From the NCBI GenBank assembly GCA_963676835.2, contig CAXXFF010000002.1, positions 1,312,001-1,376,000 of the forward strand: a DNA stretch of 64,000 nucleotides, in the 5' to 3' direction. Position numbers and translations under genes: made by a program. Of the stretch, positions 6,230-10,808 are shown piece by piece (position 1 is the stretch's first letter; every line of letters begins with the position of its first letter). The notes beneath the pieces were generated by a model. It was given only the letters and a program-made list of their open reading frames with translations, was not told the origin of the DNA and searched no databases. This stretch comes from Marispirochaeta sp. (GTDB lineage: Bacteria; Spirochaetota; Spirochaetia; JC444; Marispirochaetaceae).

Positions 6230-6655
6230 TTGAAAAAGAGCTATACCGTTTCTCCCGATATCATGAATGCAGCAGGTGAAGTTTCAACACATGTCAAAAA
6301 ACTTCTGCAGCAGCTGGGAGTTTCCCAGAAAGATGTCCGCCGATTTTCTGTTGCCCTGTATGAAGGGGAGATTAATATGGCTGTGCATGCCGGCGGAGGC
6401 ACCGCGGAGATAGTTATAGCCACCGACCGTATTGAAGCTGTCTTAAAGGATAACGGGCCGGGGATTCCCGATATTGATCTTGCCATGCAGGAAGGGTTCT
6501 CCACTGCCAGCGAGTATGTCAGAGAACTTGGTTTCGGAGCAGGAATGGGGCTTCCCAATATGAAGCGATCCACAGATCTGTTTACCCTGAAGTCTGTTCC
6601 CGGTGAAGGTACAACAGTCAGTTTTACGGTTATTCTCAATGGAGGAGCTGAATGA
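6230..6655 (+). CDS. Anti-sigma regulatory factor / Ser-Thr kinase (RsbT-like HATPase_c)
   Basis: EGEINMAVHA, DNGPGIPDIDLAMQEGFST, GAGMGLPNM; TTG start after GGAG. Confidence 0.85.
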   Translation: MKKSYTVSPDIMNAAGEVSTHVKKLLQQLGVSQKDVRRFSVALYEGEINMAVHAGGGTAEIVIATDRIEAVLKDNGPGIPDIDLAMQEGFSTASEYVRELGFGAGMGLPNMKRSTDLFTLKSVPGEGTTVSFTVILNGGAE

Positions 6656-7920
6656 CCCGTCACTCGGTAACTCTGCTGGAGGAGCGCTGTAAAGGCTGTA
6701 CCCGCTGTGTTACCTCCTGTCCCACAGAAGCTATCCGGGTGAGGGACGGAAAAGCTCATATTATGACAGAGCGCTGCATAGACTGCGGGGAATGCATCCG
6801 GGTTTGCCCCCATCATGCCAAGACGGTCCACTCAATATCTGCAGAAGAGGCCCTGGCTCTTCCCAAGCCGGTTGCCCTGGTGCCTCCCAGTTTTTACGGA
6901 CAGTTTAAACGGTCAATCCCCACAGGAGCCCTCCTGGGGGCACTGCAGTCAATAGGTTTTGTAGATGCTGCAGAGGTTGCCCTGGCGGCAGAGCTGGTAA
7001 CTGAGGCCACTGCTGAAGTGCTGGAAAAAGGAAATATTCCCCTGCCGGTAATTTCGTCTTCCTGTCCTGCCATTGTACGCCTTATGGAGGTCCGTTTTCC
7101 GGCACTTCTGCCCCATCTTGTCCCTCTGCCTTCCCCCATGGAGGTTGCAGCCAGAATGGTGAAAGAGAAATACGGGGACGATGCTTCGCCGGTGTTTCTT
7201 ACCCCCTGTCCGGCAAAAATAACCGACAGTAACCATCCTCTTTTTTCCAGAGATACCGCAGTTGCTGCAGCTGTTCCCGTCCGGGATATCTTTGCTTCCG
7301 TTGTGCGGGAAATCGGCGATGCCTCAATTGCTCCCCGGGCGGGTAAAACCGGTATCCTCTGGGGCAGAAGCGGCGGAGAAAGCCGGGGAGTTGCCCCCGG
7401 GGAAGGGATCGCCGTTGACGGCCTGCGTAATGTAGCTCTGCTGCTGGAACGGGTGGATAAGGGCAATGTTGAAGGTATTACCTTTATCGAGGTAATGGCC
7501 TGCCCCGGCGGCTGTGTAGGCGGTGCGCTGCAGGTGGAAAATCCCTTTATCGCCCGTCCCCGTCTTGTTTTGAGAGCGGAACAGGCCGGTGAAATTCCGG
7601 AAGCCCGCATGCCTGAATTCGGTCATGATATTGTGGACGGTGAAGTCATGGTAAAAGAGAACCCTGTAATGGCTCTTGATGATGACCCCATGCAGGCACT
7701 GGAAAAACTGGAACGCCTTGAAGCGCTTTCCGAAGATCTGCCCTCCCTGGACTGCGGCTCCTGCGGAGCCCCCAACTGCCGGGCCCTGGCGGAAGATATT
7801 GTGCAGGGCAGGGGCAAGGACACGGACTGTGTTTTTATTCTGCGGCAGAAACTGAGGAAGCTTACTGAAGAGATGCTTGCTCTGGATGATCAGCGCTGGC
7901 TGAGCAGCAAGAAAGAGTAG
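6652..7920 (+). CDS. Atypical [FeFe]-hydrogenase-like Fe-S protein (2x[4Fe-4S], H-cluster-like domain, C-terminal Fe-S domain)
   Basis: CKGCTRCVTSCP and CIDCGECIRVCP; L1-like SSSCP, L2-like TPCPAK, L3 EVMACPGGCVGG; C-terminal CGSCGAPNC…C. Confidence 0.82.
   Translation: MTRHSVTLLEERCKGCTRCVTSCPTEAIRVRDGKAHIMTERCIDCGECIRVCPHHAKTVHSISAEEALALPKPVALVPPSFYGQFKRSIPTGALLGALQSIGFVDAAEVALAAELVTEATAEVLEKGNIPLPVISSSCPAIVRLMEVRFPALLPHLVPLPSPMEVAARMVKEKYGDDASPVFLTPCPAKITDSNHPLFSRDTAVAAAVPVRDIFASVVREIGDASIAPRAGKTGILWGRSGGESRGVAPGEGIAVDGLRNVALLLERVDKGNVEGITFIEVMACPGGCVGGALQVENPFIARPRLVLRAEQAGEIPEARMPEFGHDIVDGEVMVKENPVMALDDDPMQALEKLERLEALSEDLPSLDCGSCGAPNCRALAEDIVQGRGKDTDCVFILRQKLRKLTEEMLALDDQRWLSSKKE
7882..7920 (+). 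repeat. Direct repeat copy 1 (3' end of the hydrogenase-like gene)
   Basis: ctggatgatcagcgctggctgagcagcaagaaagagtag; 37/39 identical to 9554-9592. Confidence 0.95.
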
Positions 7921-8026
7921 TTTAATCCGTACAATAATTTCGCATCTCTTGAAGTAAACAGCCATAATTTTTGGTTCTTTTCTGTATGTGCATTAGTTTT
8001 GACAGCTTATACCGGCTTCCATCCGA

Positions 8027-8064
8027 CCCTCACCCCCGACCCCTCTCCCAGGGGGCGAGGGGGG
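8027..8064 (+). repeat. BoxC/REP-like left inverted repeat, unit 1
   Basis: ccctcacccccgacccctctcccagggggcgagggggg; identical to 9072-9109. Confidence 0.9.
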
Positions 8065-8083
8065 ATAGAAATAGGAGGTGAGG

Positions 8084-8105
8084 TTGCACTACCGTGATGG
8101 GATGA
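8084..8105 (+). pseudogene. N-terminal stub of a DUF559 gene copy
   Basis: aggaggtgagg-ttg cac tac cgt gat ggg matches the RBS and first codons (atg cac tac cgg gat ggg) of the 9129 gene; similarity then stops. Confidence 0.7.
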
Positions 8106-8108
8106 AAG

Positions 8109-8142
8109 AAGCAGCCGGTATGGAAGTTCCCGGCTGCTTTTA
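8109..8142. terminator. Intrinsic terminator, probably bidirectional, downstream of the lipoprotein gene
   Basis: aagcagccgg/ccggctgctt stem with A/T-rich flanks. Confidence 0.7.
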
Positions 8143-8169
8143 TAAATATCGAAGAGCGTACAATGAATA

Positions 8170-8637
8170 TTATATTTGAGTAAAATCGCTGCTGTAAGTT
8201 TTGGTTACTGTAGTGTTGCCGTCTACAGTAACCGATGTTTCGAGATAATAGTCACCGCTTGAGGGGCCTGATTCGGTTCCGCTGCTATCCTCATCGCTGA
8301 TTATGTAAATATCATATGAAGTTCCGCCAGTGCCGGTCCATGCTGAACCTGTTGTTCCTCCGGCTCCATCACTTGCTTCAAGTGTTACAGATAAAGTCCC
8401 GCCTGTTCCGGTTCCGGAACCCGCTGCCAGGAAATCTGCTGTCTGGGGATCGGCGCCATCAGCAAAAAGACCGAAAGTTACGGTAATACCATTAGGGCTG
8501 GTTAAGATTTCAACGGTTACTGTACCGTCTTCGGCTGTGGATCCTGATGAACCTGAACCACCCTCACTGCAGCTTGTAAAAAACAAAAGAAGTACAATCA
8601 TTAGAGGGAGGATGATTTTGAAAGGACAATTTTTCAT
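8170..8637 (-). CDS. Hypothetical Gly/Ser/Thr-rich lipoprotein
   Basis: Signal peptide with FFTS-C lipobox, G/S linker, beta-rich acidic domain; AGGAG RBS; AT-rich context. Confidence 0.8.
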   Translation of the reverse strand: MKNCPFKIILPLMIVLLLFFTSCSEGGSGSSGSTAEDGTVTVEILTSPNGITVTFGLFADGADPQTADFLAAGSGTGTGGTLSVTLEASDGAGGTTGSAWTGTGGTSYDIYIISDEDSSGTESGPSSGDYYLETSVTVDGNTTVTKTYSSDFTQI

Positions 8638-8672
8638 AAGTCAACTCCTATTAATTGATGAGTAATTATAAA

Positions 8673-8687
8673 TGAGAATTGTTATCA
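8673..8687 (-). promoter_or_regulatory. Fur-box-like operator upstream of the lipoprotein gene
   Basis: TGAGAAT-T-GTTATCA, 12/14 match to the 7-1-7 consensus TGATAAT-N-ATTATCA, 36-50 bp upstream of the ATG. Confidence 0.5.
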
Positions 8688-8801
8688 TAGCAAATTAATT
8701 GATATATTGAAGACTGGCTTTGCAGTGATTTCATACTTTTCTAATCAGATAGTTATTGTATAACCACTTATATACAGTGATGTTGATAGGTGTTAATTGC
8801 A

Positions 8802-8838
8802 CTCTCTCCCTTTTTTTTAAGAAGGGCCGGGGTGAGGG
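8802..8838 (-). repeat. Degenerate right inverted repeat, unit 1
   Basis: ctctctccc-tttttttt-aagaagggccggggtgaggg resembles 9495-9527. Confidence 0.75.
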
Positions 8839-8939
8839 GGAGCGCCGGAAAGTATATTTCTATATATTAGAATACCTTTTCAGCGGAATCCAGAGAGAAT
8901 GATTATTTGCAAAAATTGTATAAAAAGTGCTTTCACTAA

Positions 8940-8963
8940 CAGCGCTATCTGAGCAGCAAGAAA
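8940..8963 (+). repeat. Direct repeat copy 2 (degenerate)
   Basis: cagcgctatctgagcagcaagaaa; 22/24 to 7891-7914. Confidence 0.85.
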
Positions 8964-9071
8964 ATAACCAATTTTTACAAGAATCTCGGATCTTTTGAAG
9001 TAAACAGCCGTAATCTTGGTTCTTATCGGTATGTGCATTAGTTTTGGCCGCTTGTACCGGCTTTCTTCCAA

Positions 9072-9109
9072 CCCTCACCCCCGACCCCTCTCCCAGGGGG
9101 CGAGGGGGG
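9072..9109 (+). repeat. BoxC/REP-like left inverted repeat, unit 2
   Basis: Same 38-mer as 8027-8064, directly upstream of the DUF559 RBS. Confidence 0.9.
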
Positions 9110-9128
9110 ATAGAAACAGGAGGTGAGG

Positions 9129-9524
9129 ATGCACTACCGGGATGGGGTAAATAAATCCTACTTGCTGGATGCTGTGCGGGTATTACGCAGGAGGGAGACC
9201 GGAGCTGAGAAGTTGGCCTGGCAGGTTTTGAGAAACAGGAATATCAAGGGGCTTAAATTCCGAAGGCAGCATCAGATCGGCTCATACATCGTTGATTTCT
9301 ATTGCAATGAACTCAAGCTGATAATTGAACTTGATGGTGGAATACACCTGGATCCGGAACAAAAAGAGAAAGATCGTCATCGTGATGACTATTTACGATC
9401 CAGCGGTTTTACTGTCCTACGTTTTCCGAATAATACTGTGTTACAGAATATAGTTGGCTTTATAACGGCGATAGAAGCCTTCACTTCTCAACCACCCTCT
9501 CCCTCTGGGAGAGGGCCGGGGTGA
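9129..9524 (+). CDS. DUF559 (Vsr-like / YcjD-family) endonuclease
   Basis: LRRRETGAEKLAW, KFRRQHQIGSYIVDFYC, IIELDGGIH, RDDYLRSSGFTVLRF; AGGAGG RBS; C-terminal PPSPSGRGPG is the translated right repeat. Confidence 0.92.
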   Translation: MHYRDGVNKSYLLDAVRVLRRRETGAEKLAWQVLRNRNIKGLKFRRQHQIGSYIVDFYCNELKLIIELDGGIHLDPEQKEKDRHRDDYLRSSGFTVLRFPNNTVLQNIVGFITAIEAFTSQPPSPSGRGPG

Positions 9525-9527
9525 GGG
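9495..9527 (-). repeat. BoxC/REP-like right inverted repeat, unit 2
   Basis: ccctctccc-tct-gggagaggg hairpin plus ccggggtgaggg; its reverse complement matches the left repeat. Confidence 0.9.
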
Positions 9528-9530
9528 GGC

Positions 9531-9592
9531 GCGTCAGAAGCTGAGGACTTACCCTGGATGATCAGCGCTGGTTAAGCAGCAAGAAAGAGTAG
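9531..9592 (+). repeat. Direct repeat copy 3 (displaced 3' end of the hydrogenase-like gene, with an internal deletion)
   Basis: 9531-9547 matches 7842-7858 and 9554-9592 matches 7882-7920. Confidence 0.9.
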
Positions 9593-9593
9593 C

Positions 9594-9983
9594 CTAGTCC
9601 ACACACCCGGGTATTTTCTCGCCCATCCGGGGAGGCACTTCAGCCTTGTTTCCGTTACAGTCCACGCAGGCAAAAGTGACAGTGGTGCTGAACACCAGGG
9701 TTTCTTCTTTCGCCCCGGGCTCGTCAGACCAGACATCCACGTTATAGGTTAGGGATGTTCGTCCATGTCGTATTTCATTTACATCAAAGCGAAGAATTGA
9801 TCCTACAGGTACGGGGTGGCGGAATTCTATCTTGTCCATGGCCCGGGTAACCAGCTGGCATCCGGGGTACTCCTTGGCTGCCACCAGCCAGGCATATTCG
9901 TCCACCCATTTGAGCATCTGACCGCCGAAGAGGTTGTCGTGATGGTTCAGGTGCTCCATGCGTACAATTGTATAAGTTTCCAC
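9594..9983 (-). CDS. Acyl-CoA thioesterase (hotdog fold, YciA-like)
   Basis: HLNHHDNLFGGQMLKWVDE, VTRAMDKIEF, GRTSL motifs. Confidence 0.88.
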   Translation of the reverse strand: METYTIVRMEHLNHHDNLFGGQMLKWVDEYAWLVAAKEYPGCQLVTRAMDKIEFRHPVPVGSILRFDVNEIRHGRTSLTYNVDVWSDEPGAKEETLVFSTTVTFACVDCNGNKAEVPPRMGEKIPGCVD

Positions 9984-10070
9984 ATGCCTACTATACCGCT
10001 TCTGCTCTTCCGGGGCAATTAATTTGCATCCTGAATCTCTATGAGTATTATCTAGGTAAGGGGGCGGTTT

Positions 10071-10808
10071 GTGCTGGCAGATTTAACAGGTTTTTTACGC
10101 GACTGGGAATTTGATGGCGAGAATACGGTGCGCATGCTTACGACCATTGACGGCCGGGAGATTATGCAGGTACGGCTGCCTCTGGGAGTGGAGCAGATCG
10201 AGCTCGAAGGGAGGCCCGACGGGATCTGTCCCGATGGGTATGATACGGCCCTGGATCTCTGCCGCTCCCGTCTGGCCCAGTCTGAAGGGGAGGGGAATTC
10301 CCGGGAGCTGACAGCGGATGAGTTTCTCCTGCTTCAGGGCGAAGGGATGCTCTTTTATCAGCGCTATCTGGTTCTTTTTCAGATTGGAGAGTACAGCCGT
10401 ACCGTCAGGGATACGGATCATAACCTTGCTCTTTGTGACTTTGTTGAACAACACTACCCTGGAGAGGACAGGGTTGCCCTGCTTCAGTACCGCCCGTATA
10501 TCCTCCGGGTTAATGCAGTTTCCCGTGCAATGCTTGATTTAAACGACGGGAACGCCGAATCAGCAAGAAAACGACTTGAAAATACGGCGGAAATCGTCAA
10601 AAATATGAGCGGCGTTGCAAGTCCCATTTTTGAATTTGAAAAGCTGAGGGCAATTCAGCATCTGAATGCTATACTGGATCAGATACAGGAACGTTCCTTA
10701 AGTAAACGGGATCTGCTGGAGCGGGAACTGCACGATGCAGTGGAACGGGAGGAGTACGAACGTGCCGCCCGTATCCGTGACCAGCTTAAGGAACTCGGCG
10801 ACCAATAG
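10071..10808 (+). CDS. UvrB/UvrC-motif-containing protein
   Basis: C-terminal LHDAVEREEYERAARIRDQL coiled-coil motif; N-terminal QVRLPLGVEQIELEGRPDG. Confidence 0.75.
   Translation: MLADLTGFLRDWEFDGENTVRMLTTIDGREIMQVRLPLGVEQIELEGRPDGICPDGYDTALDLCRSRLAQSEGEGNSRELTADEFLLLQGEGMLFYQRYLVLFQIGEYSRTVRDTDHNLALCDFVEQHYPGEDRVALLQYRPYILRVNAVSRAMLDLNDGNAESARKRLENTAEIVKNMSGVASPIFEFEKLRAIQHLNAILDQIQERSLSKRDLLERELHDAVEREEYERAARIRDQLKELGDQ

Follow-up and report, generated by a model that had tools for sequence, protein, structure and literature searches.

A DUF559 gene framed by inverted BoxC-type repeats in one of two stacked units of a Marispirochaeta genome

Two stacked units between convergent genes

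The window, i.e., the whole stretch of 64,000 nucleotides (nt) analyzed here, comes from Marispirochaeta sp. (assembly GCA_963676835.2, contig CAXXFF010000002.1, positions 1,312,001 to 1,376,000). Within it, two stacked units lie between two convergent genes, and one of these units carries a gene of the DUF559 family framed by inverted copies of a repeat of the BoxC/PIT/TMECO family. The host gene (6652–7920; plus strand, as are all features below unless stated otherwise) encodes a 422-amino-acid (aa), [FeFe]-hydrogenase-like Fe-S protein (PF02906, E 2e-35) that scores under the NCBIfam hydrogenase cut-offs, and it faces a 129-aa thioesterase gene (PF03061) at 9594–9983 on the minus strand. 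Comparisons were made within the 4.4-Mb (megabase) source genome, designated G000, and with five congeners of 94–98% completeness (G001–G005).

The downstream unit, B, is the only one with an intact DUF559 gene. Its leader (8964–9071; sequence families D1 and D5) runs into a left repeat (9072–9109), and the gene (9129–9524; PF04480) encodes 131 aa from an ATG behind a ribosome-binding site. The left repeat ends 19 nt before this start codon, and the final codons and stop fall within the right repeat (9492–9529), of which 9495–9527 matches the TMECO consensus exactly, with the CCG second loop of type B. Fused to the outer end of the right repeat is a copy of the last ~79 nt of the host gene (9531–9592) with an internal deletion of 17 nt; a single base (9593) separates the stop of this distal copy from that of the thioesterase gene.

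Unit A, which follows the host gene itself, has a leader (7921–8026) 80% identical to that of unit B. The first ~13 nt of this leader resemble the 3' end of the thioesterase gene, with sequence family D2 reaching 7933 and 9605. The left repeat (8027–8064) is a BoxC/triplex motif of the long-loop subtype that fits the wide TMECO pattern on the minus strand, and the identity around the two left repeats spans 46 nt without a mismatch (8026–8071 and 9071–9116). Next come a ribosome-binding site and the 5' stub of a lost DUF559 gene (8065–8106; family D1), reading LHYRDG with TTG in place of ATG; when this stretch was aligned to 9110–9154, 40 of the 46 columns, covering the ribosome-binding site and seven codons, were identical to the real DUF559 start. 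Beyond an open reading frame (ORF) on the minus strand (8170–8637) lie a degenerate right repeat with a T-rich loop (8802–8839; family D7), 89% identical to its counterpart in unit B, and a tail of ~100 nt (8840–8939) that is 85–86% identical to both of the two tail copies in G002. A degenerate middle copy of the gene end (8940–8963) closes the unit, matching the host gene's own end at 22/24 positions and the middle copy of G002 at 24/24.

The duplicated ends derive from the final ~80 nt of the host gene. Its last 39 nt (7882–7920) are 37/39 identical to 9554–9592, and a second stretch of the gene, 7842–7865, recurs in degenerate form at 9531–9552 (0/1000 shuffles scored as well). Leader and tail may be old copies of the two gene ends, to which they align in collinear fashion, but only one of nine shuffle tests was notable (3/1000), with the other eight at 61–736/1000. 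Neither of the two internal ORFs contains an integrase or transposase domain by Pfam and NCBIfam scans. The original prediction, made from the sequence of the window, had described a gene end, leader, left and right inverted repeat, degenerate gene end, leader, left repeat, DUF559, right repeat and gene end, with identical left 38-mers (8027–8064 and 9072–9109), outer direct repeats of 37/39, 1-bp spacing to the thioesterase gene and no integrase or transposase inside, and the locus bears out each of these features. Its expression "tandem DUF559" is apt for the two stacked units but not for the gene, of which unit A retains only the 7-codon stub beside the 155-aa ORF.

The 155-aa product of that ORF is rich in Gly, Ser and Thr, and its hydrophobic leader followed by Cys, as read from the sequence, marks it as a predicted lipoprotein. 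A sigma70-like site lies upstream of it (8693–8665; promoter-like match 10/12). The protein belongs to no Pfam or NCBIfam family, had no match but itself in a protein search covering lengths of 85–272, and had no full-length match in four congeners, i.e., it is an orphan. All that G002 keeps of unit A is the right repeat, the last ~20 nt of DUF559 and a portion of the leader. Because both genomes retain a remnant of the gene, each lineage likely once had DUF559 in its unit A, and the nuclease was likely lost twice, independently, with the lipoprotein gene replacing it in G000 and a deletion removing it in G002.

Strain-specific ORFs with lipoprotein-like leaders followed by Gly/Ser-rich sequence also occur beside repeats at C2:217261–218724, C4:20151–20693 and C4:489670–490584 of G000, as at window positions 8170–8637; surface proteins seem to collect at the repeat sites. 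A pyruvate:ferredoxin oxidoreductase gene considered as cargo was rejected, as it is syntenic in all five congeners. Elsewhere in G000, a different short repeat (C2:9340–9420 and 10060–10130) flanks a PIN-type toxin-antitoxin-like locus at which G002 has BoxC doublets. Upstream of the locus, an anti-sigma-type ATPase gene (PF13581) overlaps the start of the hydrogenase-like gene (window 6230–7920), which suggests that the hydrogenase operon is sensory rather than catalytic.

The repeat, the DUF559 protein and their pairing across bacteria

BoxC, PIT and TMECO are equated in the text of Holder et al. (2015; PMC4666352), which describes these repeats as known since the 1990s, conserved, abundant and destabilising, with neither a partner protein nor a function assigned. 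The TMECO consensus printed there fits the right repeat of unit B exactly, with a type B loop; the same exact match was found at three other sites in the genome, and the reversed control gave 0. Across G000, the strict pattern matched four times and the wide pattern 19 times (reversed controls 0 and 0); the motif is not a chance finding. The left and right repeats are only 76% complementary and represent two subtypes of one motif, the left of which fits the consensus only with a longer second loop. In all, G000 carries 34 repeat copies in 13 clusters, dispersed and mostly intergenic, and both of its DUF559 genes are repeat-flanked. Among the copies are eight gene-less inverted doublets of ~90–105 bp, oriented like the pair that frames DUF559, and five of the eight clearly combine a short-loop with a long-loop subtype. 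In E. coli doublets, according to the same text, type A is always paired with type B (PMC4666352). Hairpin z-scores of the repeats ranged from -0.1 to -2.7 over six strands in folding that modelled duplex pairs only, and these values are weakly informative. Multi-copy repeats of 280–800 nt with a related C-rich word, at C1:555000–563500 and 820000–833000 of G000 and also present in G002, form a separate repeat family.

The DUF559 protein matched its profile at E 3.5e-35 (PF04480; 120.6 bits against a cut-off of 20.6), and its predicted structure had a mean confidence (predicted local distance difference test, pLDDT) of 82. Fold searches matched N. gonorrhoeae NGO0050 (3hrl), 3r3p in second rank (E 6e-5) and, more weakly, 1vsr (E 0.03), in agreement with its earlier designation as Vsr-like; they also retrieved, at E 1e-3 to 1e-2, two modification-dependent restriction enzymes, PvuRts1I and AbaSI. 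At the sequence level, 3hrl was matched at E 2e-19, and NF007294 (E. coli YcjD) at E 7e-21, under its cut-off. Four residues, E27, D56, H73 and D82, are unchanged across 29 sequences and are the predicted catalytic residues; from alignment A1, 9 of 36 loci were set aside as near-identical, interrupted by stops or short. The D-H and H-D spacings of 17 and 9 equal those of D196/H213/D222 in I-Bth0305I, as described in PMC3239194, so that the predicted site would fit the active site of that enzyme. The N-terminal region gave no Pfam match to NUMOD, and the 131 aa form a single domain. Between G000 and G002 the ratio of nonsynonymous to synonymous substitution rates (dN/dS) is 0.10, indicating that the gene is under selection. 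Nuclease activity of the protein is a prediction from the four invariant residues.

Gene and repeat were then compared beyond the genus. In a sample of 201 genomes of the phylum, searched with a pattern that covers one repeat variant only and counted by hand, a strong DUF559 match was present in 9 of the 11 genomes with at least 10 pattern matches vs. 26 of the 190 others, and the two genomes with at least 10 matches that had no strong DUF559 also had high reversed-pattern controls. Pyrimidine/purine hairpins flanked most of the DUF559 loci collected from many phyla (set 1, 35 loci, counted with the 95% identical L039 left aside): 30 had one upstream, 26 downstream and 24 on both sides, compared with 11/376 and 24/560 control windows. 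Among 29 loci of the spirochaete phylum other than the window's own (set 2), the counts were 18, 21 and 13, respectively, against 6/193 in the control. The two sets share one record, as L057 and L162 have the same flank. In a protein tree that omits L067, L073, L074 and L162, the DUF559 clades mix host phyla. One supported clade of 13 proteins from at least eight phyla shares a single repeat orientation, opposite to that of the window; a crude classifier called this opposite orientation upstream of 9/13 and downstream of 11/13, and never the reverse. The E. coli K-12 ycjD gene (L172:1700–1910, fabI-ycjD) reads at its end into a degenerate repeat; 168 nt beyond its stop there follows a strict TMECO of type A. 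As gene and repeat co-occur across many bacteria, DUF559 is likely to be the missing partner enzyme of BoxC.

DUF559 cassettes were also seen in frame inside larger genes, at L040–L043 and L046 (open frames of 780–1100 aa) and at L045, L048, L148, L150, L155 and L165. By their motifs, the flanks of L040–L043 resemble type I restriction subunits. L042, titled Borreliella garinii, is a cave-sample bin with a contig of 22 kb, and its label may be wrong.

Variation within the genus and the proposed mechanism

The DUF559 gene and the repeat are both present in G000 and G002, and neither was found in G001, G003, G004 or G005. A looser repeat pattern gave 15 matches in G002 and 0–3, i.e., control level, in the other congeners. 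The junction is empty in G001, G003 and G005, where the stop codons of the host and thioesterase genes overlap with nothing between them; G004 has a different neighbor beside the host gene. Relatives with an empty site, as the original prediction had envisaged, exist, but they are ~72% identical and their gene tails differ, so that they offer no view of the exact repeat as a single copy. Empty sites, patchy joint presence and stacking all agree with its proposal that the gene and its repeats act as a unit.

G002 shares the layout of two units and three gene-end copies, and its two tails are 95% identical. The distal gene-end copies match the gene of their own genome (28/30 and 26/30) better than that of the other (24/30 and 22/30), whereas the middle copies of the two genomes are identical (24/24), which favors local, repeated copying. 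At four-fold degenerate sites, DUF559 differs between G000 and G002 at 10/52, compared with 107/228 in the host gene and 23/61 in the other neighbor, and the background has a median of 0.51 over 467 ORFs. The lower divergence of the gene suggests a later exchange of DUF559 between the two species.

Repeat-adjacent genes were also closer between these species, with four-fold divergence of at most 0.25 in 6/22 vs. 25/445, a comparison that represents about four independent tracts and has spurious ORFs in its background. Tracts more alike than background in G002 are C4:491001–494719, C2:1516178–1527105 and C2:9390–10076 of G000. The pyruvate:ferredoxin oxidoreductase tract, 93% identical between the two genomes, has a repeat copy at its start and at its end, and gene exchange may begin and stop at the repeats. 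The second DUF559 gene of G000 (L003:2100–3300, i.e., C4:272600–273800) is framed by tandem 284-bp and 87-bp repeat arrays with short direct repeats at the outer edges; at this locus G002 has 77 bp with a remnant hairpin.

The original prediction held that the element inserts site-specifically and duplicates its target, and that other DUF559/repeat loci lacking such duplications would speak against this. Of the 35 other DUF559 loci in set 1, no more than 3 lie between direct repeats that are not the motif itself, and of the 29 in set 2 none does (searches of this kind would miss repeats shorter than ~14 nt); the three candidates are L054, with another repeat of 71 nt, L066 and L044. The insertion sites are diverse, with homologues at unrelated positions and several in frame inside genes (open frames of 600–1100 aa). 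A fixed target duplication is thereby rejected as a family trait, and site-specific insertion is not upheld; the outcome is largely the one that the prediction itself had named as contrary to it. The alternative that it offered, a one-off local tandem duplication, fares no better. Non-motif direct repeats of 37–181 nt abut the repeat at 5 of the 13 clusters in G000 vs. 16/200 intergenic controls (Fisher p 0.004), e.g., where copies of a terminator-like hairpin next to htpG surround a lipoprotein gene and where copies of a 120-nt flank surround a low-GC gene; hairpin and flank are each single in G002. These local duplications of repeat plus flank look like repair-driven stacking: because the duplicated unit consists of the repeat and a variable flank, recombination or template-switch repair fits, and a transposase footprint does not.

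We propose, at about an even chance of being right, that DUF559 framed by inverted BoxC repeats is a unit whose predicted nuclease cuts the folded repeats, after which host repair copies, stacks and swaps units. At the locus in the window, a unit of left repeat, gene and right repeat would have entered the junction of the two convergent genes, the unit and adjoining host DNA would then have been duplicated, and unit A would subsequently have lost its nuclease in each of the two lineages. The distal gene-end copy would likely have arisen through a switch of template that led from the right repeat's outer end into the host gene, ~80 nt before its stop. The protein may recognise the hairpin or triplex fold and nick near by. 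No strand-transfer chemistry is known for DUF559, so a move would have to go through recombination or template-switch repair; duplications of variable length, not a fixed target-site duplication, would be expected from movement by that route.

Several points weigh against this proposal. The cutting, binding and movement of DUF559 units are predictions from sequence, and we know of no established route by which a hydrolytic PD-(D/E)XK nuclease inserts DNA at new sites. The two DUF559 genes of G000, only 59% identical to each other, do not point to any recent self-copying in this genome. Nor is stacked cargo peculiar to the BoxC repeat, given that the PIN-type toxin-antitoxin-like cargo, flanked by BoxC doublets in G002, has a different flanking repeat in G000. 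In the phylum sample, 26 of the 35 DUF559-positive genomes have fewer than 10 matches of the one pattern used, and six of the nine double-positive genomes belong to one family, whose members are kin and not independent. The flanks of set 1 had already been viewed when the first hairpin detector was written, the orientation classifier is noisy, and the search seeds account in part for the invariance of the IVDFYC block. No strict repeat was found 5' of E. coli ycjD. Finally, the text of PMC4666352 explains repeat instability by fork stalling, with no enzyme involved.

A broader version of the proposal, for which the chances are clearly below even, sees DUF559 proteins as the autonomous enzymes of widespread transposase-free mobile elements. 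They would cut triplex-folded ends, and repair would copy cassettes and doublets together with 40–200 nt of flank. Foreign genes would be able to replace the nuclease, and BoxC sites would on this broader version be integrase-free gene-capture platforms as well as end points of interspecies exchange.

Alternatively, the repeats may be active alone, with a triplex or hairpin that stalls replication, host repair that duplicates, deletes and captures DNA, and DUF559 as a passenger or resolver of structures. We regard this as rather unlikely, perhaps one chance in a few. It draws on the raised variability around TMECO sites reported by Holder et al. (2015), with fork stalling proposed as its cause (PMC4666352), and it accommodates duplications that are local and variable in length as well as the unrelated cargo between doublets (predicted lipoproteins and toxin-antitoxin-like genes). 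What it leaves unexplained is why one gene family should, in many phyla, have the repeat at either end and the stop codon within it, and why no repeat was found in the four congeners in which the gene was not found either.

We consider it improbable that, as the original prediction had it, the element is self-contained, enters one specific site with duplication of its target and builds up stacked cassettes, perhaps by way of excised circles. Three gene-end copies do bound two units in both G000 and G002, the outer copies are genome-specific, and the layout of G002 would fit a circle that integrated through a crossover within the 100-nt tail (the two tails being 95% identical; middle copy 24/24). 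In addition, one contig of sequencing run X2 joins 8025 to 9071, but this joint lies across a stretch of 46 bases that are identical and may have been made in assembly. The scarcity of bracketing repeats at the other loci (at most 3/35 and 0/29), the diversity of sites, several of them in frame inside genes, and the spread of duplication lengths (37–181 nt) all count against such an element. Least probable is a regulatory or defensive pairing spread by horizontal transfer and selection, in which the repeats would be operators, RNA structures or bait and DUF559 would cut RNA or foreign DNA: the left repeat 19 nt before the start codon, the right repeat over the stop, the fold matches to PvuRts1I and AbaSI and the bait role floated for RAYT/REPIN in the text of PMC5581495 are in keeping with it, but the eight gene-less doublets retain the cassette orientation, earlier work as cited in PMC4666352 found no promoter or terminator activity, and in-frame placement inside unrelated proteins better fits a selfish insert.

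Relation to known systems

Given a candidate enzyme whose substrate is defined, the function of BoxC becomes directly testable, including in E. coli K-12, whose ycjD ends in the repeat. The locus in the window supplies a two-species comparison in which the junction is seen both empty and filled and in which one stacked unit has likely lost its nuclease independently, a foreign gene having taken its place, and it narrows the mechanism by arguing against fixed target-site duplication. We found no description linking DUF559 or YcjD to BoxC in the open full-text literature, the scope of that search.

Insertion sequences, MITEs (miniature transposable elements with inverted repeats) and integron cassette arrays resemble the units in having inverted ends around one gene, short gene-less derivatives or stacked, promoter-bearing cargo. 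They differ in that the locus contains no DDE, HUH, tyrosine or serine recombinase domain, and in that there is no fixed short target-site duplication and the repeats are imperfect and fold internally. Site-specific integrative elements differ as well, since no integrase lies inside the locus and there is no single conserved attachment site.

With the BoxC/PIT/TMECO repeats described in PMC4666352, the present repeats share the exact type B consensus, a mostly intergenic location, inverted doublets of two subtypes and sites that vary between relatives; the second loop of the left subtype exceeds that of the E. coli consensus in length, and the main text of that paper names no partner gene (ycjD and endonuclease, 0 occurrences each) and finds no connection with mobile elements. 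YcjD of E. coli and NGO0050 of N. gonorrhoeae (3hrl) belong to the same protein family, and the C-terminus of YcjD reads into a repeat copy; YcjD differs in having the strict repeat on its 3' side only. The EDxHD homing endonuclease I-Bth0305I, as described in PMC3239194, and Vsr have the same catalytic fold, and the predicted active-site spacing matches that of I-Bth0305I. DUF559, at 131 aa, differs from them in that it has no NUMOD and no intron or intein host and carries structured repeats at both ends.

The RAYT/REPIN system, as set out in the text of Bertels et al. (2017; PMC5581495), is similar in genomic pattern, and the analogy drawn in the original prediction fits in this respect. In both, a genome has one or two genes for the enzyme, with the same short, dispersed, doublet-forming palindromes on their flanks, local tandem arrays lie beside the gene, and repeat abundance tracks the presence of the gene. 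The enzyme here is instead a Vsr-fold PD-(D/E)XK protein and not an IS200-like HUH/tyrosine transposase, DUF559 proteins mix host phyla in the tree, and the cassettes also occur in frame inside genes. A Y1 transposase was rejected as the mover, as the one Y1_Tnp gene of G000 (PF01797) has no repeat within ~1.5 kb. Taken together, the repeat (BoxC/TMECO) and the protein (DUF559) are both already known, and the unit that they form lacks defining features of RAYT, insertion sequences, EDxHD enzymes and integrative elements. By analogy, it would work like RAYT/REPIN at the genome level with different chemistry: if the proposal is true, a hydrolytic Vsr-fold nuclease would take the part that is played for REPINs by HUH transposases, and DNA of three strands might be what it recognises.

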